A stretch of 64,000 bases of DNA, taken from the NCBI GenBank assembly GCA_039934295.1, contig JBDTMN010000003.1, forward strand, positions 10,625-74,624. Direction: 5' to 3'. Source of the DNA: Candidatus Tayloriibacteriota bacterium. Its GTDB lineage: Bacteria > Patescibacteriota > Minisyncoccia > Phycocordibacterales > HO2-43-120. The position numbers and the translations under genes were made by a program. This document shows positions 6,997-64,000 of this stretch, piece after piece; the stretch's first letter is position 1; every line of letters begins with the position of its first letter. The notes under the pieces are model-generated. The model was given only the letters and a program-made list of their open reading frames with translations. It made no database searches and was not told the origin of the DNA.

Positions 6997-7027
6997 AAAT
7001 AGTAGCAGAAAAAAAAGCTGTTAGCTA

Positions 7028-7103
7028 TTAGCTTTTAGCTTTGCTTGAATCGGCAGGAAGCTGACACCTAACACCTAACAGCTAACAGCTTCCCCTATCC
7101 CCA
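7028..7103. repeat. Family-3 AGCT-rich hairpin repeat (units agctgttagct / agctaacagct), copy between nucleotidyltransferase and dnaB
   Basis: Other copies at 46813-46890, 47070-47149 and 48299-48390. Confidence 0.6.
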
Positions 7104-7169
7104 CCTTACACACAGCTTATAAAGGTTTCCAAATTGTGGCACCTCGCGTGGCTGTGTTAAAATGCGTGA

Positions 7170-27117: not shown

Positions 27118-27224
27118 GGTAAAGTAGTGTGAAAGTTTTTAAGCTACTCCCTATTTTCATATGCGCGAACTAGTGGACGAAGCGGGAACTGCTATCCAAA
27201 CCCACAATGATTATATTTATCTAC
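27118..27224 (-). promoter_or_regulatory. Conserved promoter/leader element, copy 1 (TTAGGTAGATAAATATAAT .. GATAGCAGTTCCCGCTTCGTCCACTAGTTCGCGC .. AAATAGG)
   Basis: Shares a ~60-nt core with the regions 28476-28640 and 29774-29943, all directly 5' of minus-strand genes. Confidence 0.45.
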
Positions 27225-34731: not shown

Positions 34732-35193
34732 TTATTTTAATTCAAACAAAGAAACTCTTTTTTCGAGTCCAACAAATTCCTTGCGGTCAACTTTAGTTTT
34801 CAGAGATTCTTTGATTGTTTTTACATCACTCTTCACGATGGTCATGTCTATTGCTAAATTGCCGATCATTTCCGTATGAGATTTATGAGTTTTAGAATCG
34901 TTGCCGAGAATTTCAGAATGTTTAGCGAGAGTTTCAGAATGCTTGTCAAGAGTTTTAGTATGGTTATCGAGAATTTCAGAATGTTTATCAAGAATTTTTG
35001 TATGCTTACCAAGAGTTTGCATAATATCAGTATACTGCTCCGCAACGACTTTCACTTTGTCCTGAAAATCTTCCGTAAGCGATCCCACATACCGTCTCAT
35101 ATCTTCATCTGACCTCTTATTTAGAGTATCAATATGTTGCTTTATCTCATCATTATATGGTTTTAAGATTTTTTCAATTTCAGAATTTTTCAT
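34732..35193 (-). CDS. Coiled-coil protein with tandem heptad-like DKHSEIL repeats
   Basis: KHTKILDKHSEILDNHTKTLDKHSETLAKHSEILGN. Confidence 0.4.
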   Translation of the reverse strand: MKNSEIEKILKPYNDEIKQHIDTLNKRSDEDMRRYVGSLTEDFQDKVKVVAEQYTDIMQTLGKHTKILDKHSEILDNHTKTLDKHSETLAKHSEILGNDSKTHKSHTEMIGNLAIDMTIVKSDVKTIKESLKTKVDRKEFVGLEKRVSLFELK

Positions 35194-46809: not shown

Positions 46810-46812
46810 AAT

Positions 46813-46890
46813 CAGCTGTTAGCTATTAGGTGTTAGCTTTTAGGAAAGAATCTTAAAGCTGACAGCTAATAGCTTACAGCTAATAGCTAT
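46813..46890. repeat. Family-3 AGCT-rich hairpin repeat between infC and rpmI
   Basis: cagctgttagctattaggtgttagcttttagg .. agctgacagctaatagcttacagctaatagct. Confidence 0.6.
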
Positions 46891-46892
46891 TT

Positions 46893-47078: not shown

Positions 47079-47149
47079 GCTTTTAGCTATTAGCTTTTAG
47101 CTTTTTTAATTAAAGCTGAAAACTAATAGCTAGTAGCTAACAGCTAATC
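47070..47149. repeat. Family-3 AGCT-rich hairpin repeat between rpmI and rplT
   Basis: agctataagcttttagctattagcttttagc .. gctgaaaactaatagctagtagctaacagctaatcc. Confidence 0.6.
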
Positions 47150-47153
47150 CACC

Positions 47154-48214: not shown

Positions 48215-48298
48215 CTTCAGTTAGTTCTTGCCTATATTCAGAAATATATGCATCCTCAATTTTATTATCACAAATATGTATTTGCGAATAAAATTGGG

Positions 48299-48390
48299 AG
48301 CTGTTCGCTATTTGGTGTTGGCTGTTAGGGATTCATTTCTGAATTTTGAGTCCCGAAGCTAAAAGCTAACAACTAGCAGCTAAAAGCTAT
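48299..48390. repeat. Family-3-related hairpin repeat between the YgjP-like and MBL-fold genes
   Basis: gctgttcgctatttggtgttggctgttagg .. agctaaaagctaacaactagcagctaaaagct. Confidence 0.5.
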
Positions 48391-50258: not shown

Positions 50259-50682
50259 TGATATATAGTAGCAGAAAATAGTATAGCGTGTAACCTGCCT
50301 ACCCCGTTGAGCCTCTCCACTACTGGGTAACTCGTACCATCAGAAAAGATGTATAGAAGCTAAAAAATCCTCCATGAGGATTTTTTAGTAGGGTCATTTG
50401 AAAGTATTGCCCTAGTCAAAAACTAGGTGGATGCCCTCAATTGCACTAATCAGATGGCGTTTTACGGTCTTCATCATGGCGCAACAATTTGAGCTTCCTA
50501 AATATGCTTTAATCTAGATAATACTCCAAATAACCCTGCTCTCATTATAGACTCGTAAGAATGGAATGCAAGCTAAAATAGGTGTAAGGTTTTAGGTTTA
50601 AGGTGTAAGTAAATAAAATGAAAAAAATTAAAAATCCCAAGGGTAACCCTTGGGATTTTTAACCTAAAACCTAATTAATTCA

Positions 50683-50860
50683 TGCCGACATTAAGAAATG
50701 TCGGCATCTCCCAATCTTGCCCACGAGTTCTCGAGTGGGTGCAAGATTGAGGATCCCGAGCGTGGCGAGGGACAGAAATTGTGCGCCGACATTAAGAAAT
50801 GTCGGCATCCTCAATTTTTCATCCACGAATTAAAAATTCGTGGGAAAAATTGGGACCTAC
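50683..50860. repeat. Structured intergenic region: two identical hairpins gccgacatt-aagaa-atgtcggc flanking an imperfect 16-bp hairpin, then catccacgaatt-aaaa-attcgtggg
   Basis: Inverted repeats at 50683-50706 and 50786-50808; central caatcttgcccacgag/ctcgagtgggtgcaagattg. Confidence 0.5.
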
Positions 50861-51459
50861 TTAAATATCCCCTTCAAATCCGTATCGTAGAGAATACTTT
50901 CTGGAGAGAGATGGTAATCAATGACTTCATCTTTGGAAAACCAGTGTTTGATTTCGTCCTCCGCTTCTTTGACCGAACCAGATGCGTGAATGAGGTTTCT
51001 TATTGCCCGGCCGTCTCTGTCCGCCATTTCGTACGAGTCCAAAACAAAGTCCCCACGGATTGTCCCGACATCAGACGAAAGAGGTTCAGTTCCTCCGGTG
51101 ATTTTTCGGACAATTTTTACAGCGTGTGCTCCCTGCCAGACCATTGCGATGACAGGTCCAGAACTCATGTACTTTTTGAGTACGCTAATTACCTGCTCCG
51201 CAATCACTAAAGGATCTTCCGAAGGCGGTTTCAGGCCCTTATCCTTGTATCCTTTGATGGATTTCACTCCGACATTCATTTTCCATTGCGGGTCGAGATT
51301 GTAGTGCTTGTCTATATGCTCTCCCGATGGGGCAAGCATTTTAACAGCCACGAGCTTGAGTCCAATCTGCTCGTAGCGCTTAATTATTTCTCCGACCAAA
51401 GTTCTTTGGATTCCGTCGGGCTTGATGATTACTAGGGTTTTTTCGTTTTTGGGATGCAT
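50857..51459 (-). CDS. ndk: Nucleoside diphosphate kinase (long form)
   Basis: TLVIIKPDGIQRTLVGEIIKRYEQIGLKLVAVK and NIIHGSD-like active-site region. The ORF-track N-terminus (to 51495) overlaps the upstream repeat, so an internal Met start is likelier. Confidence 0.8.
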   Translation of the reverse strand: MHPKNEKTLVIIKPDGIQRTLVGEIIKRYEQIGLKLVAVKMLAPSGEHIDKHYNLDPQWKMNVGVKSIKGYKDKGLKPPSEDPLVIAEQVISVLKKYMSSGPVIAMVWQGAHAVKIVRKITGGTEPLSSDVGTIRGDFVLDSYEMADRDGRAIRNLIHASGSVKEAEDEIKHWFSKDEVIDYHLSPESILYDTDLKGIFK

Positions 51460-51550
51460 TTTTTTTATCGCTGAACTGACTCGGAACTCTAACACGGAAC
51501 TAAACTGAACTTCTGTGACTTTCCGTGTTCTTCGTCCGTGTTGTTCTGTG

Positions 51551-51841
51551 TTAAGCCCGTAGGGCGTTGAATTCCCCGATAACTTCGTCTGCGCAATCGT
51601 CGATAATTTTTTGAAATTGCGGAAGAGCGATTTGGAGGAATGACCGTAGCTTATCCTTGTATTCTCCTTCTGTCATCTTCTCAAGTTCCGCCTTCTCCTC
51701 GTGCGAAAGCTCGTCCAACACTTTAATAAATATCTTATCCTGAACAATGTTTAGCACGGTGGCAATAAGTTCTTCTCTCTCCTCGGGGGTAAAGCCGGAC
51801 AGATTGAGTCGGGGCTCGATTTTTTGTTTGAGCGGATTCAT
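51551..51841 (-). CDS. Hypothetical protein
   Basis: 96-aa acidic ORF. Confidence 0.35.
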   Translation of the reverse strand: MNPLKQKIEPRLNLSGFTPEEREELIATVLNIVQDKIFIKVLDELSHEEKAELEKMTEGEYKDKLRSFLQIALPQFQKIIDDCADEVIGEFNALRA

Positions 51842-51866
51842 AACGTTAATGATTCGGCAATCAGTT

Positions 51867-52046
51867 TTAAGCCTCTCGCGTCTCTAGTATTTTTTGCAAT
51901 CCTCCTTTCAAATCAGCAAATCGATCATAGCCTTTTTCCAATATCTCCGCATTAACTCCTCCTTGCATTTCCTTGACCCGCTCTAAAAGTGCTTTCGAAG
52001 ATTCACCGCGCATCGCCCACTCTGGTTTAATTTGTCTCTCAAACAT
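51867..52046 (-). CDS. Hypothetical small protein (59 aa, below the ORF-track cutoff)
   Basis: Translation MFERQIKPEWAMRGESSKALLERVKEMQGG.. read from the sequence. Confidence 0.25.
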   Translation of the reverse strand: MFERQIKPEWAMRGESSKALLERVKEMQGGVNAEILEKGYDRFADLKGGLQKILETREA

Positions 52047-52118
52047 TATATAAATAATTACTTTCTACTTTGGTACAGTATACTATTCATCCTCAAGTTG
52101 TCCATTTGCCTTAAGCGA

Positions 52119-52316
52119 TCATTTATCTTTTCCCCATATTGGAATGCCGAGATCTTTGCATATTTTCTTAGCTAAGAAAGTATTTATTTCGCTATGGCGA
52201 GGCAACGTTGAGGTCTTTTGATTTTTCGGATTCCAATATTATGAGTGGCGTTTTCCTTCGCGGAGTAAACGACAGCCACAGAACACAGCATAAGAAATCA
52301 AATCGCGACGTTTCAT
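52119..52316 (-). pseudogene. hicA: hicA-like mRNA-interferase toxin with an in-frame TAA stop after codon 25
   Basis: MKRRDLISYAVFCGCRLLREGKRHS* then, in frame, YWNPKNQKTSTLPRHSEINTFLAKKICKDLGIP, matching HicA (G.xH..........PRH..EI.....ILKQLGI). Confidence 0.45.
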
Positions 52317-52321
52317 TGTGA

Positions 52322-52549
52322 CTATGCCGGAACTTTCACATTCAAAAGTTCGCGGGAAATACCGCGCTTATTTCCGTTGTTTCCAATCTCTCTATTGGCT
52401 ACCAACGTCAAAATCAGAGCCTCTTTCAAGTTATCATGCGCTTCCTTTCGTGTTTTGCCTTGAGTGTTAACACCCGGAATCTCCTCAATCCAAGCGCTAA
52501 CCCACTTGCCCGTTTTTTTATACGCCGCTGTAAATTTTAAATCCACCAT
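52322..52549 (-). CDS. hicB: HicB-family antitoxin
   Basis: WVSAWIEEIPGVNTQGKTRKEAHDNLKEALIL matches the HicB/UPF0150 pattern (..PG..t.G.T.EEA..n..EAl). Confidence 0.65.
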   Translation of the reverse strand: MVDLKFTAAYKKTGKWVSAWIEEIPGVNTQGKTRKEAHDNLKEALILTLVANREIGNNGNKRGISRELLNVKVPA

Positions 52550-52631
52550 AATAGGGTCATTATATCAAATCAGACCAGAAAATCAACAAATACCAGAATT
52601 CTTTGTACAATAAACAGAGTGGGGTAAGAGA

Positions 52632-55412
52632 CTACAAACTGCTCTCCGGCGGCTTTTTCTCGTACTTTCTCATAATTTCTTCCTCTACATCTGCCCTCTC
52701 TTTGCCGAACTTCAAGTATGAGAGTTCCTTCAATTTATCGACATTTTCTTTCTTGCCCGTGTCTGGCGACACGGTTTCAATATTAAAGGGCTTCACCGGC
52801 CGACCGTTGCTCAAAAGCTTGAGATAGGCGTTTCGGTTATCTATATTCATAAGGTCCTTCATTGAAAATACCGGAGAAAACTGCTTCTCCAAATATTCCG
52901 CGTCTTCCGCGCCGACACGAAATGCGGCAATGGAGCCCACGTTTCCAAAAACGGAATCTCGAATGCTCTCCTCAAGCTGGGCGATAAACTGATGCGCGAT
53001 AATGAGCCCAAGCTTGTATTTCCTCGCCTCGGAGAGAATCGTCGAAATCGAATTTGTCGTAACATTCTGAAATTCATCAATGTAGAGATAAAAAGGAGGC
53101 AGATTTTTGTGGAACGAATCAACCCGAGAGAGCGCCGCCATCAAAATTTTGCCGACCAAAATGAGCCCCAAAAGATTGGCGTTGATTTCCCCTAAACGAC
53201 CCTTTGCAAGGTTGACCAACAGAATTTTTTTCTCGTCCATTATCTGCCTGAAGTTAAAACTGGACTTTTCTTGAGCGATAATCGGCCGCATGATGTCATT
53301 CGAGAGAAACACGTCGAATTTCGAAGTGATGTACGGCACGATATTGGCGAGCGAGGCTTCCCCACCGGCTTTCTCCGCCACCTCTCTCCAAAATTGAACG
53401 ACAATCGGATTCTTGCACCGCGAGAGCTTCAATTCCCTGAAACTTTTTTGCGCCAATACTCTCGAGACATCGAGAAGGGTGTTCCCGCTCTCCGGGTCTT
53501 CCATCGAAAGCAGAACTGCGTTTCTGAAATATTGTTCGAACATAGGACCTCCCGCCGTTTTCATATCGAAGAGCTTGTTGAAGATGGAGAGCATCTCGTT
53601 CACCACAAATGTTTTTTGCTCCGGAAATCTAATGTCGTACTCGAGCATGTTTAAAGCCATCGGGCGGGCGGTGTAGCTTGGGTCAAAATAGATGATGTCC
53701 TCGTATCTCTCTTTTGGCACCATGGCTAAGACATCCTGAATGTCGGAGCCGTGTGGGTCGATGAGGCAGACCCCCTCGCCATTCGCGATATCCTGGGCAA
53801 TCATGTTTTTCAAGAGCGTCGTTTTTCCCGTACCAGTCTGGCCGATAGTATAGAAGTGCCGGAGACGGTCATCGGGTCCAATATAAATCGGAGTTTCTGT
53901 GTTCCTGTTTTTGTTTATCCCAAGAAGAATTCCGGTAGATGCGAGACCGATTGGAGCGGGAGCGCTCGCCGCTTTCGAGATTTTCAACTGTGGAGCCGAT
54001 TTGATTTCAGTCGATGGCAAATGCATCATGGTGGTAAGCTCCTTCAGACTCAACGGAATTTTTTCATCCTCGTTATAGAGTCTGAAAGAAAAATCTTTAA
54101 GCAGTTTATTCAGTTTCCCCTTTTTGAGTTCTGTAAATGCAAGCCTGTTGCCGTGGCTGTTTTCAAACTGGTTGAACGCGGACTGCACGTCGCGCAAAAT
54201 AGACAGCGCCCTCGATTCCTCTTTTGCGGAAGCGACGATACGAATGTTCGTAGCGACGATTGGACTTGCAATCTTGAGTTTGATATCTTCCACCACTAGT
54301 TCGTCTACATTTCTGAGTTCTTTCTGCTTTTCTTTCTCCTCCTTTTCCTTCTTATTGGTGAGATCTCTCGCAACCTCCTTGCCAAATTTAAAGACGTGCC
54401 CAAAGACTGTTTCAGGAAAATCTATGGCTTCTTTCACCTTAACGCCTTTCCCGATTCGCTCAAGCGCGTACTTGTATTTGGAAGTATACTCGTCCCCGAC
54501 AGGCTTAAAGACAATCTGAATTGCCGCTCCCTCGCCGTCCCGCTCGATTTTAGAAAAGCTATTCAGAACCACGTTCAGAGGATCGTGGTCAAACTGGTCA
54601 TATGTTTTGAGAGAAAAAATAGGATTCTTCGCTGACTCGGCGGACGAGCCGAGAGAGACCCCTCGACTGTCGAAAATGTTGTAGTCATCCTTTCGCTCGG
54701 AAATCCTAGCATTATGGAAAATAGAGAGAACCTGTTTTTCAAAAAGATCGCGCTTGGAGTCCGGCACCGCCGCGAAGAAAATAAATTCGTTACTGTGGTT
54801 TTCAACCGCGAGCTCAATGGTAAAGTAGTTTGGCCCCCTGTCACTTCTGTCGGACACGGAGAGCATACCTGCGTAAAATTGCTCCATTGAGGACACGAGC
54901 TCCTTGAGCGTCTTTGGATTTTCTTCCTTTGCCTTCTCCGGCAGAGTGATTTCGTAAAGAGTCATTTCGAGAGCGCGAAACAGCGGGTCTTTTTCTTTTA
55001 TTCCTTTCACTTCAAATCCGGCCTTAATATATTGAACCAAAAAACGCTCGAAATCATCTTCAAGATGGGGACTCCCGAGCTCTTCGATGATTGAAAGAGT
55101 ATTTTTAATGCCCTTTTCCTCGAGTATTCCGAGAAATTCACTCATCTTCTGGTCGTGCTCTTCGGGCGTGAGGTCAAGTACAATTTTCCCGCGCTCCTCC
55201 TTTGACATTTCAAATTGAGGGTGGAGAACCTCGCCTCCCGGAACTTGTTTATACTTTTGGACCTCTTCAGAAATGACCTGCTCCTTTGGTTTCTCGATGC
55301 CTTTTTCTTTGAGCTCTGATTCTCTTTTCGCTACTTCCCCGCGCAAAAAAGAAAGCTCCTCCTCGGGAGTGCTGAATTTCTTCTCAACGGCAGGGAAAGT
55401 AGATTCACTCAT
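52632..55412 (-). CDS. VirB4/VirD4(TraG/TraD)-like type IV secretion / conjugative-type ATPase (AAA_10-like C-terminal domain)
   Basis: Walker A TIGQTGTGKTTLL, Walker B LYIDEFQNV; about 480-aa N-terminal domain without a TM helix. Confidence 0.55.
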   Translation of the reverse strand: MSESTFPAVEKKFSTPEEELSFLRGEVAKRESELKEKGIEKPKEQVISEEVQKYKQVPGGEVLHPQFEMSKEERGKIVLDLTPEEHDQKMSEFLGILEEKGIKNTLSIIEELGSPHLEDDFERFLVQYIKAGFEVKGIKEKDPLFRALEMTLYEITLPEKAKEENPKTLKELVSSMEQFYAGMLSVSDRSDRGPNYFTIELAVENHSNEFIFFAAVPDSKRDLFEKQVLSIFHNARISERKDDYNIFDSRGVSLGSSAESAKNPIFSLKTYDQFDHDPLNVVLNSFSKIERDGEGAAIQIVFKPVGDEYTSKYKYALERIGKGVKVKEAIDFPETVFGHVFKFGKEVARDLTNKKEKEEKEKQKELRNVDELVVEDIKLKIASPIVATNIRIVASAKEESRALSILRDVQSAFNQFENSHGNRLAFTELKKGKLNKLLKDFSFRLYNEDEKIPLSLKELTTMMHLPSTEIKSAPQLKISKAASAPAPIGLASTGILLGINKNRNTETPIYIGPDDRLRHFYTIGQTGTGKTTLLKNMIAQDIANGEGVCLIDPHGSDIQDVLAMVPKERYEDIIYFDPSYTARPMALNMLEYDIRFPEQKTFVVNEMLSIFNKLFDMKTAGGPMFEQYFRNAVLLSMEDPESGNTLLDVSRVLAQKSFRELKLSRCKNPIVVQFWREVAEKAGGEASLANIVPYITSKFDVFLSNDIMRPIIAQEKSSFNFRQIMDEKKILLVNLAKGRLGEINANLLGLILVGKILMAALSRVDSFHKNLPPFYLYIDEFQNVTTNSISTILSEARKYKLGLIIAHQFIAQLEESIRDSVFGNVGSIAAFRVGAEDAEYLEKQFSPVFSMKDLMNIDNRNAYLKLLSNGRPVKPFNIETVSPDTGKKENVDKLKELSYLKFGKERADVEEEIMRKYEKKPPESSL

Positions 55413-55548
55413 GTTGACTCCATTATATAGAGTTTAGCAAAAACCTACAATTCATCGGCAAATAAAAAGTGTAGCGTTTAACTTGTAACGTAAGAGGAGC
55501 AAATTCTTTTTTCTGACGCTACACGTTACACGTTTTACGTTACACATC

Positions 55549-55833
55549 TTAAAGCGACGTCCTCACTTCTTCGAGATTGAGTTTGTCTTTTTCCCTCTTC
55601 TCAAAAGCTGTTACTTCCTCAAGATTTTTCCTAATCTGCTTCAAGGCTTCGTTGTATCTCCCGCTAATTCCCGCCATAACTTCAAGATACAACCCCGCGT
55701 ATGCAAGGTAAAAAGAAGCTTTCTCTTTTTTTGTCATTTCTCTGCCGAAAAATTCCGCCATCAAAGAAGCTGCCTCATCGTATTTTTCCTCCTCCAAGAG
55801 AGATTCAATTTTTTTTGTATCAAGCTCGTTCAT
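55549..55833 (-). CDS. Hypothetical small protein
   Basis: 94-aa ORF between the ATPase and the giant acidic protein. Confidence 0.35.
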   Translation of the reverse strand: MNELDTKKIESLLEEEKYDEAASLMAEFFGREMTKKEKASFYLAYAGLYLEVMAGISGRYNEALKQIRKNLEEVTAFEKREKDKLNLEEVRTSL

Positions 55834-55837
55834 AGAT

Positions 55838-58800
55838 TTATTCTGGCAGGCCTTTTAATATAGTAATAATAAATCCTCTTTTTGCTTTACCTTCAAGAGT
55901 GCCGGGCAAATCTTTACCCACTTTCACGAGCAAATCCCTCACAGCTTTTCTTGCTTGGTCTCCTTTTCTTGATCCGGCCTTATTTCTTTCCAAATGACTC
56001 TTAAGAGCTTTTTGCAACTCTTCGACACTATTCGCCCCAAACGAGAAGTTTTTTAAAGCTTTGGTTATTTCGCCAGAAACTTTTCCGTCGACCGCATCGT
56101 CATTTCTCTTCTGCATCTCATCTTCATTTAATCCCTCAAGGAAATCGACACCCTCTTCGTCTTCCATTCTCTTCAACTCATCAAATTTCTCTTGAGCTTT
56201 GTCAGGGTCCATACCCGGACTCATGAGTTCCGCCAATTGGCTTTGGGCTTTCTCTATCGATATTTCCGAAATCCGCTTCCAAGAATCCAGACTCTCCAAT
56301 AACGATATCCTAATCTGTTTTGTTTGGTTTTCAAATTCTGTCCTTATCTTTGCAAAATTTTCACCTTTCGCGAGAGCCGCGAGACTCGCGGTAATGTTGT
56401 CGCTCACCGTCTTCAATTTTGCAACAGTTTCATCATGCGAGGAAACCTCGTTTTGAAATTTGCCCCCGAAGCCGGGAATCCACTCGCGAAGAAACTTTTT
56501 GAATCCGACATATTTAAATTCTCCTTTTTTCTTTGTAAGCGACTCCTTTTCTCCCTGCAATAGTCCTATTTTGGCTGCAAGGTCGTCAACACTCTTATTG
56601 CCGACAAGCTGTATTATTGCGGCCTCGTTGGCTTTAATTTCGGCTTGATTCTTCTTAATAGTGTCGAGAATATCCGCAAGTCGAATAATCTCTTCTGGAC
56701 TGTTTATGGACTTCGCATCAATTTCACCCTGAATCGCCTCGAGTTCTTCCGGAGTAAACTTACCTGAAACATTTTCAAAAAAGCCCTGAAATTCGCTCTT
56801 AAGCCCGCTTATAACTTTTTCTTTCTTGGTATACACCTCGAAAACTGACCGAATCTTGTCCGCGTCATCGTTTTCAATCCACTCCTCGCTTTCCGGATAT
56901 TGAGCGAGGAAAAGTGGAAATTTGGCGTCATAATTTTGCATCTGCCGAATGCTCATCGCCAGTATTTCCGCGTTCGTAACGCGTGATAGTGTTGCTCCCC
57001 TCATCACTGCCTCGGGCTCTCGCGTTGGTTCAGTTTTCGGCGGCTCAGCTTTAGGCACAGGTTCAGTTTTCAGTGGCTCTTCGGCTTTTGACACAACTGG
57101 TTCTACCGGCTTTTCGACAGGTTTTGGTTCTTCAGGAGGTTCGGTCATCAATAGAGCCTCTCCCGCTGATGGAATTTCCTCATCGGCAGGTTTCAAAGCT
57201 TCAGCATCATTTTTTGGCTCTCCCTTTCCTTCAAGAATTCTCCATGCCTCCTCTGGTTTGAGAGAGTCAATCTCACTTTGTGTTTTACCCATTCCTATTA
57301 GTCGTTCCTGCATATCTCGAGTAATCATAAAGGGTATACCTGCGTCCGCAGAGGATACCTCTCTCTTTGCTGTGGAATTAGAAGACTCTGACGTCAACGC
57401 TTCAGGTTGAGCGGGTAGCTTTTCTTCAGAAGGTGACGCTGGCGGCTTTGGAGCTAGGCCCAGCTCTAGAATTAATTGCTCTTCTTGAGCCAATTCTTCG
57501 GGCGACTTCTGAGGCAACTTTTCTTCAGGCGGTTTTTGTTCCGCAACACCTTCCTCGCCTGGTGGCTTTAAAATGACTGGAGGGGTCACTTCGGGGACAA
57601 CAGGAGCTGTGTCTTCAGGATTTGAAAGTGGAGCAATAGGTTCTGGTTTTTTAACACTTAGTTCGAGAGGTGTCAGATATTTGGCTTTCATGTATGCCTC
57701 TTCAAGCATGGAATATAAAGTTGGATTTTCTTCAATAATCCTTGCCGCTCTTTCCATAGTTTTATGAACATAGTCGTCAATATTTTCTTTTTTTTCTTTT
57801 GAGTCAGCTACTCCTGGTATGCTTTTTATTTCTTGAAAATTTTTATTTACTTCTGCCAAATTTCCTACCTCCTGGTCAGACTCCACAAATAACCTGCGAA
57901 GATAGCCTTTAACATTCCGATCAGAAAATAGCTTTATAAATGCGTCGAACGCGGAATATCTATACACTGGAGAAGTAGTTGATTTAACCTCTTCGAGTTT
58001 ATCTTTGATACGTTCTACCGCAACACTGCCCGCAAGCTCAACATTGTTAAAGACAATAGACGGTTCTTTCTCAAGTCGTTCGTATAAGTCCTCAAAATTT
58101 CTAACAGGTTTAGAAGATTCTGTTCGAGCGGGCTCGACATTTGCGGGTTTAGATTCAGAAGCGCCTATGGGATTTGGAGGGATTTCCTCTTTTTTTGGAG
58201 GAGGCTCAGCTTTTGCCGTTGTCTCTGGCGGTAGTCCTCCGGCTATTTTTCCTCTCTTTTTTCCTCCTTTTTTCTTTTCTCCTTCCCCTTCTTCCCCTTC
58301 TTCCCCCTTGAATCTAGTTTGATTCTTCCCTTTTCTCTCTTTTTTCTCTTTTTTCTCATCTCCAGATTCTGCATCATTTTTCAACAAAGGGGCATCGGGC
58401 TTTTTCGGCGCCCCAAAAGATTCATCGGCAAGATGAGTAACAAGAGGAGCTTCGCCTCCCTTTTTTTCTTCTGTCCCTATTTTAGGTGTTGCCTTCGATA
58501 CTTTTTCTCCCAAAAGTCTAAGCGAGTCAGATAAAGTGGTTTCTTTTTTTCCTTCGACAGGAATAGCTGAATCTTCAATCACACTCTTCTTAAATATCTC
58601 GTGCAATTCATTAGATGCCTTAATCAAACCTTCGTCCCCAGATTCAACTGCGATTTTAGCTCGCTTTTCAAAGAGGGCATCTGTATTTTCAATAACTGTT
58701 TTCCTTGGGTCTCCTACTTTTTTAGAAATTTCTGCCAACCGTTTAAGTATTTTCTCGTCCACTTTTCCAATATCTTTTTTTTGCGCTAGAGAGGCTTCCT

Positions 58801-58897
58801 TCTTTTCTTCAGGAGGTTTTTTGTCTTTGAATTTCGCCTCAAGCGCGTCTAGACCTTGAATTTTTTCAAACCCCGCATTTTCTTTGTCTTCTGCCAT
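55838..58897 (-). CDS. Giant (1019 aa) acidic, Glu/Lys/Pro-rich low-complexity coiled-coil protein
   Basis: Long EK- and P-rich tracts and a KKERKGK basic stretch; no recognisable catalytic motif. Confidence 0.5.
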   Translation of the reverse strand: MAEDKENAGFEKIQGLDALEAKFKDKKPPEEKKEASLAQKKDIGKVDEKILKRLAEISKKVGDPRKTVIENTDALFEKRAKIAVESGDEGLIKASNELHEIFKKSVIEDSAIPVEGKKETTLSDSLRLLGEKVSKATPKIGTEEKKGGEAPLVTHLADESFGAPKKPDAPLLKNDAESGDEKKEKKERKGKNQTRFKGEEGEEGEGEKKKGGKKRGKIAGGLPPETTAKAEPPPKKEEIPPNPIGASESKPANVEPARTESSKPVRNFEDLYERLEKEPSIVFNNVELAGSVAVERIKDKLEEVKSTTSPVYRYSAFDAFIKLFSDRNVKGYLRRLFVESDQEVGNLAEVNKNFQEIKSIPGVADSKEKKENIDDYVHKTMERAARIIEENPTLYSMLEEAYMKAKYLTPLELSVKKPEPIAPLSNPEDTAPVVPEVTPPVILKPPGEEGVAEQKPPEEKLPQKSPEELAQEEQLILELGLAPKPPASPSEEKLPAQPEALTSESSNSTAKREVSSADAGIPFMITRDMQERLIGMGKTQSEIDSLKPEEAWRILEGKGEPKNDAEALKPADEEIPSAGEALLMTEPPEEPKPVEKPVEPVVSKAEEPLKTEPVPKAEPPKTEPTREPEAVMRGATLSRVTNAEILAMSIRQMQNYDAKFPLFLAQYPESEEWIENDDADKIRSVFEVYTKKEKVISGLKSEFQGFFENVSGKFTPEELEAIQGEIDAKSINSPEEIIRLADILDTIKKNQAEIKANEAAIIQLVGNKSVDDLAAKIGLLQGEKESLTKKKGEFKYVGFKKFLREWIPGFGGKFQNEVSSHDETVAKLKTVSDNITASLAALAKGENFAKIRTEFENQTKQIRISLLESLDSWKRISEISIEKAQSQLAELMSPGMDPDKAQEKFDELKRMEDEEGVDFLEGLNEDEMQKRNDDAVDGKVSGEITKALKNFSFGANSVEELQKALKSHLERNKAGSRKGDQARKAVRDLLVKVGKDLPGTLEGKAKRGFIITILKGLPE

Positions 58898-59001
58898 AGT
58901 AGTATCTATTTTACCTTTATTGTAGATAGTTTGTCCACCAATCGCTTCGAGCCTGTTTATACTCTACAGGTAGATTGCAAGCAGGCTCTTAGAATTTTGC
59001 G

Positions 59002-59772
59002 TTAGGGCTTTGTCAAAATTTCCGCATCGCCTTCCGTTATCAAAACTGTGTGCTCGAAGTGCGCGCTTCGGCTCCCATCGCGAGTGCGATAGGTGAAGCC
59101 GTCGTCATCGAGCATAATTTTTTCGCTCCCCATATTCACCATGGGTTCGATAGCAATCACCATGCCGGGAACTAATTCCTCTCCCTTTCCTTTTTCTCCA
59201 AAATTCGGCACATACGGGTCTTCATGCACTTTGTGTCCAACTCCGTGGCCGGAAAGCTCACGAACAATTCCAAAACCATAGGGCAGAATCGCAGATTGCA
59301 CGGCAAAACCGATGTCGCCCACATGATTGCCCCTCTTCGCGGCTTTTATACCTGCATCGAGCGACTTTTTTGTAACAGTGAGAAGTTTTTTACTCTCCTT
59401 GCCGATTTTCCCGACGGCAATAGTTACTGCCATATCCGTAATGAGTCCATTGTGCATGAGTCCCAGGTCCAAGCTCACGATGTCACCCTCTTTTAAAATT
59501 TTAGGTTTTTCGTTTGGTATTCCGTGGACAATTTCATCATTTATTGAGACGCAGAGACTCGCGGGGTAGGGACGCTTTGCACCGTAGGGCTTAAATTGTA
59601 AAAAAGCGGGAGTATCCCCGCCTTCTGCAATCAATGTGTTTGCCAAATCATTGAGCTCGTTTGTCGCAATTCCCGAAGTAACACGGTTCGCGATTTCATT
59701 CAAAATAAGTGCGTGTCTTTTCCCGCCTTCTCGGAGTATCTCGATATCTTTTTTTGTTTTGATGGAAACCAT
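59002..59772 (-). CDS. map: Methionine aminopeptidase, type I
   Basis: Metal-ligand regions DIVSLDLG, ELSGHGVGHKVHE, GMVIAIEPMV. Confidence 0.9.
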   Translation of the reverse strand: MVSIKTKKDIEILREGGKRHALILNEIANRVTSGIATNELNDLANTLIAEGGDTPAFLQFKPYGAKRPYPASLCVSINDEIVHGIPNEKPKILKEGDIVSLDLGLMHNGLITDMAVTIAVGKIGKESKKLLTVTKKSLDAGIKAAKRGNHVGDIGFAVQSAILPYGFGIVRELSGHGVGHKVHEDPYVPNFGEKGKGEELVPGMVIAIEPMVNMGSEKIMLDDDGFTYRTRDGSRSAHFEHTVLITEGDAEILTKP

Positions 59773-59789
59773 TTTTAGAATAGATGAGG

Positions 59790-59900
59790 TATGTTAGTTA
59801 GTAAGTAAGTTAGTAAGTTAGTAAGTTAGTAAGTTAGTAAGTTAGTAAGTTAGTAAGTTAGTATACTAGCGAATCGATTTTAATTTACTAACTCACTAAT
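59790..59900. repeat. Tandem octamer repeat (gttagtaa x ~8) followed by its inverted complement (ttactaac..), forming a long intergenic hairpin
   Basis: Direct reading of the sequence between map and adk. Confidence 0.7.
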
Positions 59901-60502
59901 TTACTATTTATCTTTTGCACAACCTCCCTATGTACCTCCTCAATCGACTGCTTACCGTCAATGGAAAAGAAATTATACGCAACATTTGTCTTAAAAAAGT
60001 TCACTGACTCCATCACATTTTTATCAAACCACTGAAGTCGTGCGGTGATAGATTTTTTGTCGTCATCATTGCGTCCTCGCTCAAGAAGACGGTTTTGTGC
60101 CTCTTCATTTGGAATATCAATAAGAAATATGTAGGGCTTAGCCACTTTATAAAATTTGAGAGCAGAATCAAGCATGAAAGCTTCGTGCAACCTTCGGCAT
60201 ACTCCATCAAGAATAATATGCTCTTCCCCGGTAAAATTTTTTATCAAATAGTCACTCCACAGCCATATAGGAAAAAACTCAGGCCAAAGCCCTCCCTGCG
60301 CCATAACTTCTTTAATAATTTTACTCGTGGAAGTGGATGAAGAATCCACAAACTCACGGCCCATTCTACCCGTCTCAATATAAAGAACGTCGCGATTATC
60401 TTTTTCTTTAAAATACTTCGCGAGAAGTTGAGCTTGAGTTCCTTTTCCCGAACCTGCTCTTCCGAAAAAGAGAACTGTTTTTTGTGAAGTCATTTTATTC
60501 AC
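59888..60502 (-). CDS. adk: Adenylate kinase family protein
   Basis: P-loop FFGRAGSGKGTQA, in the secY-adk-map position. Confidence 0.75.
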   Translation of the reverse strand: MNKMTSQKTVLFFGRAGSGKGTQAQLLAKYFKEKDNRDVLYIETGRMGREFVDSSSTSTSKIIKEVMAQGGLWPEFFPIWLWSDYLIKNFTGEEHIILDGVCRRLHEAFMLDSALKFYKVAKPYIFLIDIPNEEAQNRLLERGRNDDDKKSITARLQWFDKNVMESVNFFKTNVAYNFFSIDGKQSIEEVHREVVQKINSKLVS

Positions 60503-60506
60503 GTAT

Positions 60507-60572
60507 CTTGTAACGTGTAACGTCTGAGAAAGAGATTTCTTTTTCTTACGTTACACGTTTTGCGTTACATGT
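60507..60572. repeat. Family-1 palindromic intergenic element (TGTAACGTGTAACG .. AGAAAGA|TCTTTCT .. CGTTACACGTT..CGTTACA), copy immediately 5' of adk
   Basis: Other copies at 4749-4813 (diverged), 55469-55547, 62403-62485 and 63514-63624. Confidence 0.7.
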
Positions 60573-60578
60573 CTTTAT

Positions 60579-61859
60579 CTAGTACTCGCGCATCGAGACC
60601 TGCCCTTCGATTTTCTTTACGAAATCCAAGACCACCGAAACGGCAATCAAAAGCGCGGTACCTCCGATAGCTAATGTTGGGTCTCCACTTGCGCCCTGCA
60701 TAATAAAAGGCATGACAGCGATAACTGCGAGGAAAAGAGCGCCGACCAACGTGATTCTGGTAACCACTTTTCCGATGTATTCCGATGTCGACCCTCCCGG
60801 CCTTACTCCCGGAACAAAAGCTCCGTTTTTTTGCAGGTTCGTTGAAATGGTAACTGGGTCAAAAGTGACTGCAGTGTAAAAGTAGGTAAAAATAAATACC
60901 AAAATGAAATAGATACTATTATGAAACCAAGGATTTTCCAAGAACGCTAATCCGGATTTGGCAAAAGAAATTATTTGTTCATTTTTCACACCACTCGCAA
61001 AAAAATTTAAAATCATCTGCGGGAAAAGCAAAATGGAAAGCGCGAAGATGATTGGGATCACCCCTGCCTGATTGACTCGCAAAGGCAAGTAAGTGGAAAT
61101 ACCGCCATATACTTTCATCCCTCGAACTCGTTTAGCATATGTTACAGGAATAGGACGTTCGGCTTCTGTGATAGCAACGACAGCAACAACAACTAAAATT
61201 GCAACAATTAAAAAACCGAGTAATTTAGGAATAACTGACGGATCGAGAGTAGGATAAACATACTTAAAAATCAGTTGGCTCGCAACCTGGGGCACTCGCG
61301 CAACAATTCCCGCGAAGATGATGAGCGATGTGCCGTTCCCTATGCCGTATTCCGTAATGAGCTCCCCAATCCACATCAAGAGCACCGACCCGCCGGTAAT
61401 GACGAAGATGTTGATAACGAAATCAAATGTAGCCAGAGGATCTATCACCCCTTGCTTTTGTAACAGGACGAGAAATCCGTACGCCTGAATCGCGGCTAAA
61501 ACGACGCTCATCCTTCTTGATAATTGCGCGAACTTCATCCTTCCTGCTTCCCCCTCCTCGTGGTAAAGTGCCTTCAATTTCGGTGACATCATGGTCAAAA
61601 GTTGCATGATAATCGAGGCGGTGATGTAAGGACCCACTCCGAGCATGACAATAGAGAGTGTCGCGAGACCAGAACCCGAGAAAACGTTCAAAAGGCCGAA
61701 GAATTGATTATTGGAAAAAAAACCTTCTAGTCGCAGAGGATCCACTCCGGGAATTGGTATCGCCGCGAGCAATCGGAAAATCACCAAACCAAAAAGCACG
61801 AACAGAAGTTTCTTCCGCAACATCTTGTCATGTAATAAGAGTAGGATTTTTTCTTTCAT
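60579..61859 (-). CDS. secY: Protein translocase subunit SecY
   Basis: 10-TM protein with SecY signature segments (GVDPL.., IFALSILLFPQ..). Confidence 0.9.
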   Translation of the reverse strand: MKEKILLLLHDKMLRKKLLFVLFGLVIFRLLAAIPIPGVDPLRLEGFFSNNQFFGLLNVFSGSGLATLSIVMLGVGPYITASIIMQLLTMMSPKLKALYHEEGEAGRMKFAQLSRRMSVVLAAIQAYGFLVLLQKQGVIDPLATFDFVINIFVITGGSVLLMWIGELITEYGIGNGTSLIIFAGIVARVPQVASQLIFKYVYPTLDPSVIPKLLGFLIVAILVVVAVVAITEAERPIPVTYAKRVRGMKVYGGISTYLPLRVNQAGVIPIIFALSILLFPQMILNFFASGVKNEQIISFAKSGLAFLENPWFHNSIYFILVFIFTYFYTAVTFDPVTISTNLQKNGAFVPGVRPGGSTSEYIGKVVTRITLVGALFLAVIAVMPFIMQGASGDPTLAIGGTALLIAVSVVLDFVKKIEGQVSMREY

Positions 61860-61866
61860 TTTGTTT

Positions 61867-61951
61867 CACTGAACTGACTCGGAACCTTGACACGGAACTA
61901 AACTGAACTTTCTGTGTGTTTTCCGTGTTCTTCGTCCGTGCTATTCCGTGT
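61867..61951. repeat. Family-2 intergenic element (CACTGAACTGACTCGGAAC..GACACGGAACTAAACTGAACTT..TTCCGTGTTCTTCGTCCGTG..TTCCGTGTT), copy 5' of secY
   Basis: Other copies at 51469-51552 (5' of ndk) and 63075-63159 (5' of rpsE); about 85-90% identity. Confidence 0.7.
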
Positions 61952-62391
61952 TATTTTATCGTTCCGCCGGCTTTCTCAATCTTCGCCTTCGCGCTCGCGG
62001 ACACTGCGCAACCGATTACCATAATTTTCTTTGTAAGTTCCCCATCGCCTAGAATTTTGAAAGACGAGCTCAATCCTTTTTCAGCGCTCACTATGCCCGA
62101 GGATGCAAGGCTCGCCGGAGTCACTTCGCTTCCGTCTGCAAAATACTTCTCAATCGTCTCGAGATTGACTGGGATAGATTTAGGACGGAAACTCTTGCCC
62201 CCTCCCACTCCTCGACCGCGAAGTTTGGGAAGTTTTTTAATGAGATCCCGAAGCTCTGGACGTTTTTTTCTTCCCGCCCTCGCGTTCTGACCTTTCGTCC
62301 CCCTTCCGGAAGTCTTGCCTCTCTTTCCTCCGCGTCCAACGGACATCTTTCTTTTTTGCTGGGTATTTCTTTGTAAGGTGTTTGATTGCAT
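61951..62391 (-). CDS. rplO: 50S ribosomal protein L15
   Basis: GRGTKGQNARAG..RGRGVGGGKS. Confidence 0.9.
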   Translation of the reverse strand: MQSNTLQRNTQQKRKMSVGRGGKRGKTSGRGTKGQNARAGRKKRPELRDLIKKLPKLRGRGVGGGKSFRPKSIPVNLETIEKYFADGSEVTPASLASSGIVSAEKGLSSSFKILGDGELTKKIMVIGCAVSASAKAKIEKAGGTIK

Positions 62392-62402
62392 GTTATTAAA
62401 TC

Positions 62403-62485
62403 ATGTAACGTGTAGCATGTAACGTGTAACGTAAGAAAGAAAATTCTTTTTCTTACTTTACATGTTAAACGTTTTGCGTTACACC
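62403..62485. repeat. Family-1 palindromic element, copy 5' of rplO (occupies the position where rpmD/L30 would normally lie)
   Basis: atgtaacgtgtagcatgtaacgtgtaacgtaagaaagaaaattctttttcttactttacatgttaaacgttttgcgttacacc. Confidence 0.7.
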
Positions 62486-63066
62486 TTCTTTATATTCTCT
62501 CTAAGTTTCCCGAGCGCACGTATTGCCACTTCAGCATTGTTGAGCTTGTTCTTGCTTCTCGAGAAAATCTTAGCCGTCACGTCGGTTACTCCACCAAGCT
62601 CAAGCACATTACGAACCGAGCTTCCGGCAATCAGTCCCTTTCCCGGAGCAGGTCTTATCTCAACTCTTGAACTCGTAAATTTGGCATCCACTTCATGCGC
62701 GATTGACCGAGAAGTGGTGAGGGGAATCTGTATCATATTTTTCTTTGCATTCTTCAATGCTTTGTCGATTGCAATCGAGGTGTCTCCTGCCTTGCCGGTT
62801 CCAACTCCCACTCGGCCTTTACGGTCGCCCGCAACCAAGGCCACGCTAAAGCTGAAGCGCCTTCCCCCCGAAGCCACTCTCGTGACACGGCGAATACTCA
62901 CGATTTGTTGGTCAAATTCGGGCTTAACTCTCGGAGCGCGCTCAAAACCCCTTCTCGGGTTCTTTTTTTGGTCGCGATTGCCCATCCTCGGCCGTCTCTC
63001 ATCAGTCGCATGAACTGGCACGGCTGGCGCAACAGAGTTGGTATTTTTTTGTGTAGTAGTATCCAT
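62479..63066 (-). CDS. rpsE: 30S ribosomal protein S5 (start at internal Met MDTTTQ; the ORF-track N-terminal 20 codons are translated family-2 repeat)
   Basis: dsRBD-like and S5 C-terminal motifs (VTRVASGGRRFSF, GVGTGKAGD). Confidence 0.85.
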   Translation of the reverse strand: MDTTTQKNTNSVAPAVPVHATDERRPRMGNRDQKKNPRRGFERAPRVKPEFDQQIVSIRRVTRVASGGRRFSFSVALVAGDRKGRVGVGTGKAGDTSIAIDKALKNAKKNMIQIPLTTSRSIAHEVDAKFTSSRVEIRPAPGKGLIAGSSVRNVLELGGVTDVTAKIFSRSKNKLNNAEVAIRALGKLRENIKKV

Positions 63067-63074
63067 ATTTTTAT

Positions 63075-63159
63075 CACTGAACCGATTCGGAACCTCGACA
63101 CGGAACTCCACTGAACTTCTGTGCATTTCCGTGTTCTTCGTCCGTGTGGCTTCCGTGTT
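63075..63159. repeat. Family-2 element, copy between rplR and rpsE
   Basis: cactgaaccgattcggaacctcgacacggaactccactgaacttctgtgcatttccgtgttcttcgtccgtgtggcttccgtgtt. Confidence 0.7.
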
Positions 63160-63510
63160 TTAAAATTTAAGTCCCCCTTCCCTCGCTCCTTCCGCAACCG
63201 CTTTTACTTTCCCTGTATAAATAAAACCTGCCCGATCAAACACCGCTTTTCCGATTTTCTTCTCCTTGGCCTTCTTTGCGATTGTCTTCCCTACTTCTTT
63301 TGCCTTTTCCAACGTTGTGCCCTTTCCTATTTCTCCCGAGTTCGATTGGGCTAGTGTCGCTCCTTTGTCATCATCCACAAGCTGGGCATAGATATATTTG
63401 TTGGAGCGGTACACGACAAGCCGAGGAGCTTCCCCCGTTCCTTTGACCTTTGCGCGGATTCTTCGGTGTCGTCGTATTCTTTTGTCTTGTTTGGTATTCA
63501 TATTCATCAT
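63160..63510 (-). CDS. rplR: 50S ribosomal protein L18
   Basis: KRIRRHRRIRAKVKGT..RLVVYRSNKYIYAQLVDD. Confidence 0.9.
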   Translation of the reverse strand: MMNMNTKQDKRIRRHRRIRAKVKGTGEAPRLVVYRSNKYIYAQLVDDDKGATLAQSNSGEIGKGTTLEKAKEVGKTIAKKAKEKKIGKAVFDRAGFIYTGKVKAVAEGAREGGLKF

Positions 63511-63513
63511 ATA

Positions 63514-63624
63514 ACATGTAGCCTGTAACCTGTCCTAAACCCGTCCGACGTGTCGGACTAGGGTAACGTCTGAGAAAGATCTTTCTTTTTCTTACGTTAC
63601 ACGTTACACGTTTTGCGTTACATG
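63514..63624. repeat. Family-1 palindromic element (with an internal extra hairpin insertion), copy 5' of rplR
   Basis: ..gtaacgtctgagaaagatctttctttttcttacgttacacgttacacgttttgcgttacatg. Confidence 0.7.
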
Positions 63625-63627
63625 CCC

Positions 63628-64000
63628 CTACGCCGCTTTCTTCCCCTGCTTTCTCCGAATCACTTCATCGAACCCTCGTATGCCCTTTCCCTTATAGGGC
63701 TCCGGCAATTTCTGCGCTCTGACTTTCGCAACAAACTGGCCGACCAATTCTTTATCGATACCGGAAACAGTAATTATATTCTTTTCGGCCGTAACTTTTA
63801 AGCCCTGTGGGATTTTCAATGTTACCTGATGAGAGAAACCGAGACTCATGACTAAATCGCTCCCCTTGACCTCCGATTTGAACCCGATGCCCTCCACGAT
63901 AAGTTTTTTTTGAAACTCCTTATTCACTCCCTCAATCATACTCACGATTTCGGAGGCATACGTTCCCCAAAGCTTTAATGACTCTGTATCCTGCTCTCGG
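63628..64000 (-). CDS. rplF: 50S ribosomal protein L6, C-terminal part (gene continues beyond the window end)
   Basis: GFSHQVTLKIPQGLKVT..ITVSGIDKELVGQ..AKVRA. Confidence 0.85.
   Translation of the reverse strand, partial: REQDTESLKLWGTYASEIVSMIEGVNKEFQKKLIVEGIGFKSEVKGSDLVMSLGFSHQVTLKIPQGLKVTAEKNIITVSGIDKELVGQFVAKVRAQKLPEPYKGKGIRGFDEVIRRKQGKKAA

Follow-up and report, generated by a model that had tools for sequence, protein, structure and literature searches.

Intercistronic spacers in a 64-kb stretch of DNA (the window in what follows) from a metagenome-assembled genome of Candidatus Taylorbacteria (Parcubacteria, candidate phyla radiation, CPR) carry a repeat of ~90 bases, here called family 2, whose three copies precede ndk, secY and rpsE. 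Its dispersal, its bias towards the strand of the flanking genes, its gain, loss and replacement among relatives, its geometry, its non-coding status and the conservation of its sequence are established. With confidence that stands at about an even balance, we interpret family 2 as a duplicative non-coding palindromic cassette, akin to miniature inverted-repeat transposable elements (MITEs) or REPINs, which is co-transcribed in housekeeping operons and whose hairpin makes the insertion tolerable.

All three copies lie on the minus strand, which is that of the genes, at 51460-51550, 61860-61950 and 63067-63159. The repeat listing of the window gives them as the three-copy family D7 (51462, 61860 and 63068), and the invariant 21-mer CACGGACGAAGAACACGGAAA has exactly three occurrences there, all on the minus strand (0.01 chance matches expected in the window with up to three mismatches). 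A search with the family-2 profile recovered the same three copies (E ~1e-20) and no fourth one in the 64 kb. Compared along the entire spacer, the copies share 81-85% identity, and BLAST local alignments give 86%, so that a preliminary description of this DNA, which had reported three copies with 85-90% identity in front of ndk, secY and rpsE, was right about the places and somewhat high about the identity (81-86%). The independent public Logan assembly of SRR26386571 (loci L001 and L025) carries the same elements, with contigs that break inside them; the repeat is therefore not an artefact of the assembly analysed here.

Each copy occupies the entire spacer of 91-93 nt between a stop and a start codon, beginning 0-2 nt after the upstream TAA and ending, as far as its last conserved word (GTTCAGYG) is concerned, 7-9 nt before the ATG. 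The core hairpin of copy A (51469-51550, with the 5' arm at 51510-51550 and the 3' arm at 51469-51509) directly follows the TAA of a conserved 96-aa gene (51551-51841), an orthologue of the 97-aa gene that stands before ndk in the related locus L021, and is separated by an A-rich 9-nt leader, ATAAAAAAA (51460-51468), from ndk (50857-51459, 200 aa). Copy B has its core hairpin at 61867-61950 (arms 61908-61950 and 61867-61907), directly after the TAA of rplO (L15, 61951-62391), and its leader is the 7-nt AAACAAA (61860-61866), followed by the ATG of secY (60579-61859, 426 aa). Copy C, with a core hairpin at 63075-63157 (arms ~63116-63157 and 63075-63115), begins 2 nt after the TAA of rplR (L18, 63160-63510) and has an 8-nt leader, ATAAAAAT (63067-63074), before the ATG of rpsE (S5, 62479-63066, 195 aa). 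These genes, too, are encoded by the minus strand, and the window has no L30 gene between rpsE and rplO. The A-rich leader is similar in all three copies and is therefore probably part of the repeated unit. Copies within other single genomes likewise share a short leader before the ATG (for example, GTGTATTATC/GTGTATTACC in L005), which makes the whole spacer the repeated unit. The earlier statement that the copies end 3-10 nt before the start codon can be narrowed to 7-9 nt for the last conserved word, and the copies fill the spacer completely.

Long open reading frames (ORFs) are open into two of the copies (62479-63126 for S5 and 50857-51495 for Ndk), and on these frames one could argue that the repeat encodes N-terminal extensions of the two proteins. 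However, the S5 proteins of relatives begin with MADAQTQKN or METTVEQKN and align with the MDTTTQKN of the window at ATG 63066, the Ndk of L021 aligns with that of the window from ATG 51459, and the residues encoded by the repeat have no counterpart in the S5 and Ndk of relatives. Moreover, the upstream ATG or GTG is not kept among the copies and the copy before secY is not in an open frame. A coding extension was rejected on these alignments, and we give it virtually no credence. Since the S5 and Ndk of relatives start at the ATG after the repeat, the portions of the ORFs within the repeat are artefacts, the true starts being ATG 63066 (not 63126) and ATG 51459 (not GTG 51495), and family 2 is non-coding. 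This is also how the preliminary description had seen the N-termini of the rpsE and ndk ORFs, namely, as translated repeat; conserved protein N-termini, which it had named as the finding that would speak against its element, are not seen in relatives, where both proteins start after the repeat. The same effect is visible in L025, where a 224-aa S5 call runs through the repeat, and S5 calls of 230-238 aa in L023, L026 and L027 may be similar repeat-derived extensions.

Either arm of family 2 consists of four units of ~11 nt that contain CACGGAA(C) or its complement, with the words spaced by 10-13 nt. The words of the 5' arm are CACGGAA(C), CACGGAC, CACGGAA(C) and CACAGAA(C), and those of the 3' arm are their complements, GTTCAGT, GTTCCGTG, GTTCCGA and GTTCAGTG. 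On the sense strand, the 5' arm is laid out as CACGGAA(C)-4-CACGGAC-6-CACGGAA(C)-3/4-CACAGAA and the 3' arm as TTCAGT-3-GTTCCGTG-5-GTTCCGA-4-GTTCAGYG, followed by the A-rich leader of 7-9 nt and the ATG; the ends, CACNGAAC ... GTTCAGYG, form terminal inverted repeats. The 5' arm is rich in A, C and G, with only 1-3 T per 44 nt, and the 3' arm is correspondingly poor in A. In ten full copies, 77.5% of the cells in the four helices pair, as compared to 21-42% in slid controls, so that the arms are truly complementary and the direct CACGGAA repeats with complementary TTCCGTG that had been noted earlier are borne out. The multi-stem structure expected from them is not: the predicted fold is one long interrupted hairpin with four short helices. 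Its minimum free energy is -21.6 to -27.3 kcal/mol for the sense strand of the three window copies (z -2.1 to -3.0), and the values for the antisense strand are equally or more favourable (-24.1 to -28.2 kcal/mol; z -2.1 to -3.4 across both strands). At the gathering thresholds of Rfam, the window matches tRNAs only, and in E-value mode the region 59700-63700 gives only spurious matches to microRNA hairpins.

Family 2 was found in at least five other Parcubacteria-like contigs. Scans of public collections with the 19-mer ACGGACGAAGAACACGGAA gave one true match in the genome collection (Greene0416_79), along with seven chance matches within genes of unrelated organisms, eight true and three chance matches in metagenomes, and none in viral contigs; further copies were recovered with the family-2 profile. 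Full hairpins are present in L005 (Parcubacteria bacterium Greene0416_79) at the rpmJ-rpsM and rpsM-rpsK junctions, the latter with a nested GC-rich palindrome (2012-2192), in L010 and L011 at the orthologous secE-nusG junction, in L010 before folD, in L013 before typA and again at the contig end, and in L015, where the flanking gene is unclear. Other copies consist of the 5' arm only. In L018 such a copy stands 6 nt before tRNA-Thr, in L020 one precedes a promoter-like site, L014/L017 have one after a 106-aa gene, and the one in L010 contains a nested hairpin (1314-1390). None of the ~15 copies departs from the strand of its neighbouring genes (leaving aside the unclear gene in L015, and with some copies orthologous rather than independent), and there is no constant gene partner, the repeat preceding, in different genomes, ndk, secY, rpsE, rpsM, rpsK, nusG, folD, typA and tRNA-Thr. 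The copies align across hosts with a GC content of 44-57%, with a mean column identity of 70% (10 copies). Wherever the upstream gene is readable, the 5' arm starts 0-9 nt, mostly 0-5 nt, after its stop codon, and this is true even of the 5'-arm-only copies before a tRNA or promoter. Start-codon proximity, as proposed initially, is thus half of the rule: the elements do end near the ATG, but their most constant feature is the 5' arm just after the stop.

Analysis of orthologous junctions in relatives showed that the element is gained, lost and replaced, which is the presence/absence polymorphism for which the preliminary description had suggested a check. In L021, a Taylorbacteria locus with the same gene order and a SecY that is 77% identical to that of the window, the spacers at all three junctions lack an element (29 nt at L15-SecY, 42 nt at L18-S5 and 43 nt at 97aa-Ndk). 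In L022 (SecY 80% identical), the L15-SecY junction holds an unrelated hairpin built of TAGTCTATAG words, and SecY-Adk has, as in the window, an element of another repeat family, family 1 (GTAACG words). Yet other families, all 78-93 nt long, are found at L15-SecY in L023, L026 and L027. The syntenic loci L010 and L011, with ~75% nucleotide identity, differ before folD, where family 2 in one of them corresponds to an ACGAAT/TTGGTA hairpin in the other. Small palindromes are, in turn, nested within family 2 (the two cases in L005 and L010 given above) and family 1 (63534-63562). Growth in place could be invoked for such spacers, with the arms arising by slippage of short units, the inverted arm by template switching or quasi-palindrome correction, and the likeness of copies through gene conversion. 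The arms are indeed tandem arrays, a pure octamer array, (TTACTAAC)n, fills the adk-map spacer, and word families that differ in sequence but are of similar length (78-93 nt) occupy L15-SecY in five genomes. Against this, the non-word spacers and the loop are shared at 81-86% across loci up to 11.6 kb apart that have no flanking homology for conversion, the same family stands before different genes in several other genomes, and insertions are nested, so that growth in place appears improbable.

The conservation of these elements was compared with that of neutral sites in genome pairs whose SecY proteins are ~82% identical; the comparison was made on families other than family 2. Four-fold degenerate secY sites are saturated in these pairs, with 31-34% identity, and the identity at junctions occupied by different families is no better than random (42-55%). 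Elements retained at the same junction are 64% identical between the window and L022 at SecY-Adk, where the 5' arm is nearly identical, and 72% and 77% identical between L026 and L027 at L15-SecY and L6-L18, respectively. As retained elements are far more alike than four-fold sites, the element sequence itself is evidently constrained, which means that either something recognizes it or it functions.

The SecY of the window is identical to a protein that is listed by NCBI under a Candidatus Taylorbacteria metagenome-assembled genome. The genes of this host have few of the usual initiation signals. A Shine-Dalgarno (SD)-like 4-mer precedes only 6 of the 56 genes in the window, whereas at least 12 of the 56 are of the leaderless type, with a -10-like (TATAAT-like) hexamer that ends 6-10 nt before the ATG; examples of the latter are 919-1617, 1691-2251, 29944-30486, 34732-35193 and 52322-52549. 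Both figures point to a genome in which leaderless mRNAs and SD-independent initiation are frequent. An intergenic position and a stable hairpin might also mark family 2 as a promoter or an intrinsic terminator between genes. However, a consensus search from rplF to map found neither a sigma-70-like hexamer pair nor a GC-rich stem with a T run in any family-2 copy, and the hairpin is followed by a run of A, not of T. The true terminators of this genome look different (a GC-rich stem and a T run) and sit elsewhere in the window, at convergent junctions, while its true promoters lie 6-10 nt from the ATG; we regard a promoter or terminator as very improbable. Because the elements have no promoter or terminator consensus and ordinary terminators are found at convergent junctions elsewhere, we infer that they are transcribed within polycistronic mRNAs.

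If family 2 is a palindromic cassette of this kind, the element would be transcribed as part of a polycistronic mRNA and the spacer would fold into a single interrupted hairpin with the upstream stop and the downstream start codon at its base. Such a compact fold would let ~90 nt enter an operon junction without uncoupling the downstream cistron, which has no SD sequence. Secondary co-option is conceivable: the hairpin might act as an insulator and prevent pairing of the A-rich start region, the terminating ribosome might melt the base of the hairpin opposite the pre-start segment and so free the start (translational coupling), or the element might be a site for mRNA processing or stability. 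The conservation of the words would reflect their recognition by a putative factor that copies or binds the element. Both the copying mechanism and any effect on translation would belong to this proposal rather than to the observed features.

Several observations weigh against this interpretation. There is no target-site duplication at any copy in the inspected flanks of the ten full copies, which consist of the stop codon plus 0-9 nt, mostly purines, on the left and a variable leader of 6-10 nt on the right. No transposase, RAYT or integrase domain was found by Pfam among 51 proteins of the window, a scan that left out five predicted genes, including two giant ORFs, and that covers 64 kb of the genome; the only hint among the scanned proteins is an HTH_38 protein at 32013-32696. 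Conservation far above that of synonymous sites exceeds what one would expect of a purely selfish insert that decays. The 5'-arm-only copies mean that the hairpin is not obligatory, and one word-hairpin family of L027 occurs in both orientations within a single ribosomal operon, so that orientation is not strict for every family of the wider class. As for the fold, an alignment of ten full family-2 copies from five sources has only one compensatory change in 30 pairs, its covariation score is below that of shuffled controls (485 of 500 shuffles score at least as high), and RNAalifold finds no covariation either. Even mismatches are conserved, such as the G.A in the outermost word (8 of 8 copies). 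Of 38 intercistronic hairpins from the window and from five related loci, 18 are more stable as sense than as antisense RNA and 20 are less stable (p = 0.96), and the hairpins of the window and related loci have no sense-strand advantage in G-U pairs. Complementarity is thus present, but there is no evidence of an RNA helix under selection, and co-transcription and folding are both inferred.

The same observations bear on the possibility that family 2 is primarily a selected cis-acting RNA module, that is, a processing site for RNase III or another enzyme, a stability barrier or a coupling device, with its spread being secondary. Such a module would fit the strict orientation of the ~15 copies on the gene strand, their fixed geometry relative to the stop and start codons, and the much greater conservation of retained elements of other families as compared to four-fold degenerate sites. 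It would also fit a class-wide preference for an A-rich 5' arm (27 vs 11 of 38, p = 0.014, with the hairpins not fully independent), the scarcity of SD sequences and the wealth of leaderless-type genes in the host, and the presence of a gene for a beta-CASP RNase J-like protein in the window. Yet covariation, a sense-strand excess of G-U pairs and a match in Rfam are all missing, half-elements have no pairing partner, different genes carry family 2 in different genomes, and the element is dispensable, as L021 does without it at all three junctions. We consider a primary RNA function unlikely.

The conservation of the words, and even of mismatches, without compensatory change would also be expected of an array of DNA-binding sites, in which four direct and four inverted CACGGAAC words with a period of ~11 bp are bound by a regulator, a nucleoid protein or a transposase, and the arms are complementary simply because the sites are inverted. 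The words follow one another at 10-13 nt, which nearly matches a helical turn, arrays with direct words only precede a promoter-like site and a tRNA, and the sequence is conserved across hosts of 44-57% GC. This explanation would, however, call for many cognate proteins, since 64 kb from a very small genome contain seven or more families whose words are unrelated, and other families have periods of 7-9 nt. Furthermore, the elements are located inside conserved operons without a promoter consensus and no candidate DNA-binding protein is linked to them. It therefore appears quite unlikely. A role as a DNA-uptake sequence was set aside, with CACGGAA occurring only 13 times in the window as against 8.4 expected and with many different word families present. 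The words might conceivably also be compared to CsrA-type GGA sites or to direct repeats of the OmpR/PhoB type.

Family 2 belongs to a wider class of elements. The window contains seven intergenic repeat families and ~15 spacers built in the same manner from other words, such as GTAACG, AGCTGTT/AGGTGTT, GCGAAT, TTCGAA and ACATGTGAC, as well as the pure (TTACTAAC)n array; spacers of this type precede rplI, rpmA, dnaB, recR, rpmI, rplT, adk, rplO, rplR and other genes. In the window and five related loci (mostly ribosomal-protein clusters), co-directional spacers have a median length of 92 nt (124 junctions) and most of them form one single hairpin. The 38 clear intercistronic hairpins among these are placed at a median distance of 3 nt from the stop codon and 7 nt from the ATG. 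Family 1 fills the secY-adk spacer (60494-60578, minus strand) and has further copies at 62392-62478, 63511-63627, 55413-55548 and 4754-4813. Along rplF-rplR-rpsE-rplO-secY-adk, families 1 and 2 alternate as 1-2-1-2-1, with one element per junction. The preliminary description had recognized family 2 as a second family in the same kind of position as family 1 and had raised the question of whether the two exclude each other at a junction; the former is borne out, and from rplF to adk no junction has both. Its suggestion of a genome-wide system needs to be widened, as the phenomenon is not special to this genome, being lineage-wide in related Parcubacteria.

A broader explanation for the class is that interchangeable word-hairpin cassettes replace whole spacers in Taylorbacteria-like Parcubacteria, where they would act as coupling, insulation or processing modules in the service of translation that is SD-independent or adapted to leaderless mRNAs, with family 2 being one allele. 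Each cassette would come with a leader of its own near the start codon and would fold in such a way that the stop and start codons touch. Recognition of the words by a putative factor would explain why conservation far exceeds that of synonymous sites without covariation. We put this forward tentatively and consider it unlikely.

Several members of the class, and some other repeats of the window, deserve separate mention. The family-1 copy at 4754-4813 is located in the divergent spacer between the gene for a CtpA-like protease and cysS, and the copy between rplF and rplR contains a nested GC-rich mini-hairpin of 29 nt, CCTAGTCCGACACGTCGGACGGGTTTAGG (63534-63562), which is absent from the other family-1 copies. 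The adk-map spacer (59790-59870) consists of some ten octamers in pure tandem order (TTACTAAC / TAACTTAC); its orthologue in L022 has a CTAGAG-word hairpin instead. Heptamer hairpins and half-arrays of AGCTNNT / AGGTGTN words are found at 46810-46892, 47079-47153, 6991-7169, 48215-48300 and 2252-2352; the classical IF3-L35-L20 operon has two of these between its genes infC, rpmI and rplT. A further intergenic repeat family, made up of GCGCGAACTAGTGGACGAAG… and a CCCTCTTTCG…CAAAGGG hairpin, has four copies in 27118-29943, around genes for DUF347, histidine-phosphatase and NUDIX proteins. Two intergenic blocks of 160 nt that are 89% identical (33886-34191 and 34420-34731) lie upstream of the 34732-35193 gene and its neighbour. 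Downstream of ndk, a non-coding stretch of 598 nt (50259-50856) includes a 28-nt match to the AGGTGT-word array at 2252-2352 and an aberrant ARAGORN call (tRNA-???) at 50641-50731.

Among the relatives, the L027 family that occurs in both orientations has three copies (722-815, 1590-1682 and 3462-3558), one of them opposite to the others. In L026, two 96-nt hairpins of ATACGAAT words (5590-5685 and 5986-6081), nearly identical up to a few final bases in front of the ATG, lie on either side of rplX (L24), so that direct-repeat hairpins bracket an essential gene. A separate type of GC-rich palindrome, …CATTCCCGCGAAGGCGGGAATG…, is present in L021 (3939-4017 and 15334-15560) and L027 (9516-9586); these palindromes resemble classical REP-like hairpins and are distinct from the word-hairpins.

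Short extragenic palindromes of the REP/BIME and REPIN type, known from Enterobacteria and Pseudomonas, are often located in transcribed intercistronic spacers, and their doublets form hairpins of ~100 nt. Family 2 is similar to them in its inverted doublet hairpins, its singlet remnants (the 5'-arm-only copies), the absence of target duplication, its conservation within a lineage and its strand bias. In contrast to REP sequences, which are short imperfect palindromes with a conserved 5' tetranucleotide, an arm of family 2 is a series of four direct words and not itself a palindrome; it cannot pair with itself, because the 5' arm is almost free of T and the 3' arm is poor in A. REP/REPIN systems have a single-copy gene for the Y1 transposase RAYT, whereas there is no RAYT among the scanned proteins of the 64-kb window. 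In addition, many unrelated families coexist in a very small genome, and the copies fill the whole stop-to-start spacer. The Correia/NEMIS elements of Neisseria, ERIC/IRU of Enterobacteria and RUP/BOX of Streptococcus are MITE-like imperfect palindromes of ~100-150 bp, some of which are substrates of RNase III. Dispersed intergenic placement, co-transcription with neighbours and insertion polymorphism between strains are familiar features of these families, and family 2, with its proposed co-transcription, resembles them in these respects. Correia elements have TA duplications and known end motifs, whereas family 2 shows no duplication, and arms made of word arrays with a strict stop/start position in ribosomal-protein operons set family 2 apart from all of these families.

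Mycobacterial interspersed repetitive units (MIRUs) are intercistronic, have ends that abut the stop and start codons and have been proposed to preserve translational coupling. Unlike family 2, MIRUs are direct tandem units of 46-101 bp that carry small ORFs and are not hairpins. Rickettsia palindromic elements are repeat families that proliferate in small, host-dependent genomes; they often insert in frame into coding genes, whereas family 2 is strictly intergenic. Direct repeats of the heptamer TAACTGA have been described in Beggiatoaceae, Cyanobacteria and Bacteroidetes, with a patchy distribution and no known mechanism (MacGregor 2015, PMC4679880). Like family 2, these are arrays of short words a few nucleotides upstream of start codons, mostly without an SD sequence, and occur also inside ribosomal-protein operons; unlike family 2, they repeat one heptamer in direct tandem order and hardly ever include inverted copies (PMC4679880). 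Family 2 has CACGGAA(C) in units of ~11 nt (10-13 nt), arranged in two inverted arrays, and many word families coexist with it. One CPR family, with CTGAATAAC words (L011, L022 and L023), does contain TAACTGA. Overall, family 2 resembles REP/REPIN and MITE-like repeats in its behaviour and MIRUs and TAACTGA arrays in its position, yet it lacks defining features of each of them. In the CPR, Parcubacteria and Patescibacteria literature that we searched, elements of this kind are not described.

CPR bacteria are regarded as extremely streamlined, and in typical bacteria operon junctions like these are only a few bases long. Spacers with a median of 92 nt, mostly occupied by single hairpins, contrast with this presumed streamlining. 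If the elements are only selfish, they represent a very active class of repeats in reduced genomes for which our literature searches returned no description; if they are functional, they are relevant to how operon-internal genes without SD sequences are translated. The elements also interrupt short-read assemblies and cause gene callers to extend N-termini wrongly.

Some other features of the window may be recorded here. Next to the ribosomal cluster, the region 52632-58897 encodes a VirD4/TraG-like coupling ATPase of 926 aa, in which DUF87, TrwB and TraG-D_C domains are recognized. It also encodes a protein of 1019 aa in which Pfam found no domain. The ATPase gene also adjoins the ribosomal cluster in L021 (12721-18320) and L026 (18963-21269), and L021 has a large unannotated protein at the position that matches the 1019-aa protein. 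The HTH_38 protein (227 aa, 32013-32696) adjoins a duplicated tRNA 3' end: tRNA-Met at 31906-31981 is followed by a second copy of a tRNA 3' end, with …TCAAATCCCACCCCCGACA appearing twice in 31722-32012, which looks like an att duplication left by an element integrated at the tRNA. An ORF with a LAGLIDADG domain (919-1617) overlaps or abuts tRNA-Leu(CAG) (881-965) and may encode a homing endonuclease tied to an intron or insertion near the tRNA. The two giant ORFs, 13303-20817 and 35436-43880, correspond to ~2500 and 2800 aa; the second one has internal repeats of 120-290 nt (D1, D2, D5, D6 and D8) and a higher GC content, 0.48-0.50. Finally, a tandem periodicity of 21 nt, or 7 codons, is found at 34869-35015 (D3), within the 153-aa ORF 34732-35193.

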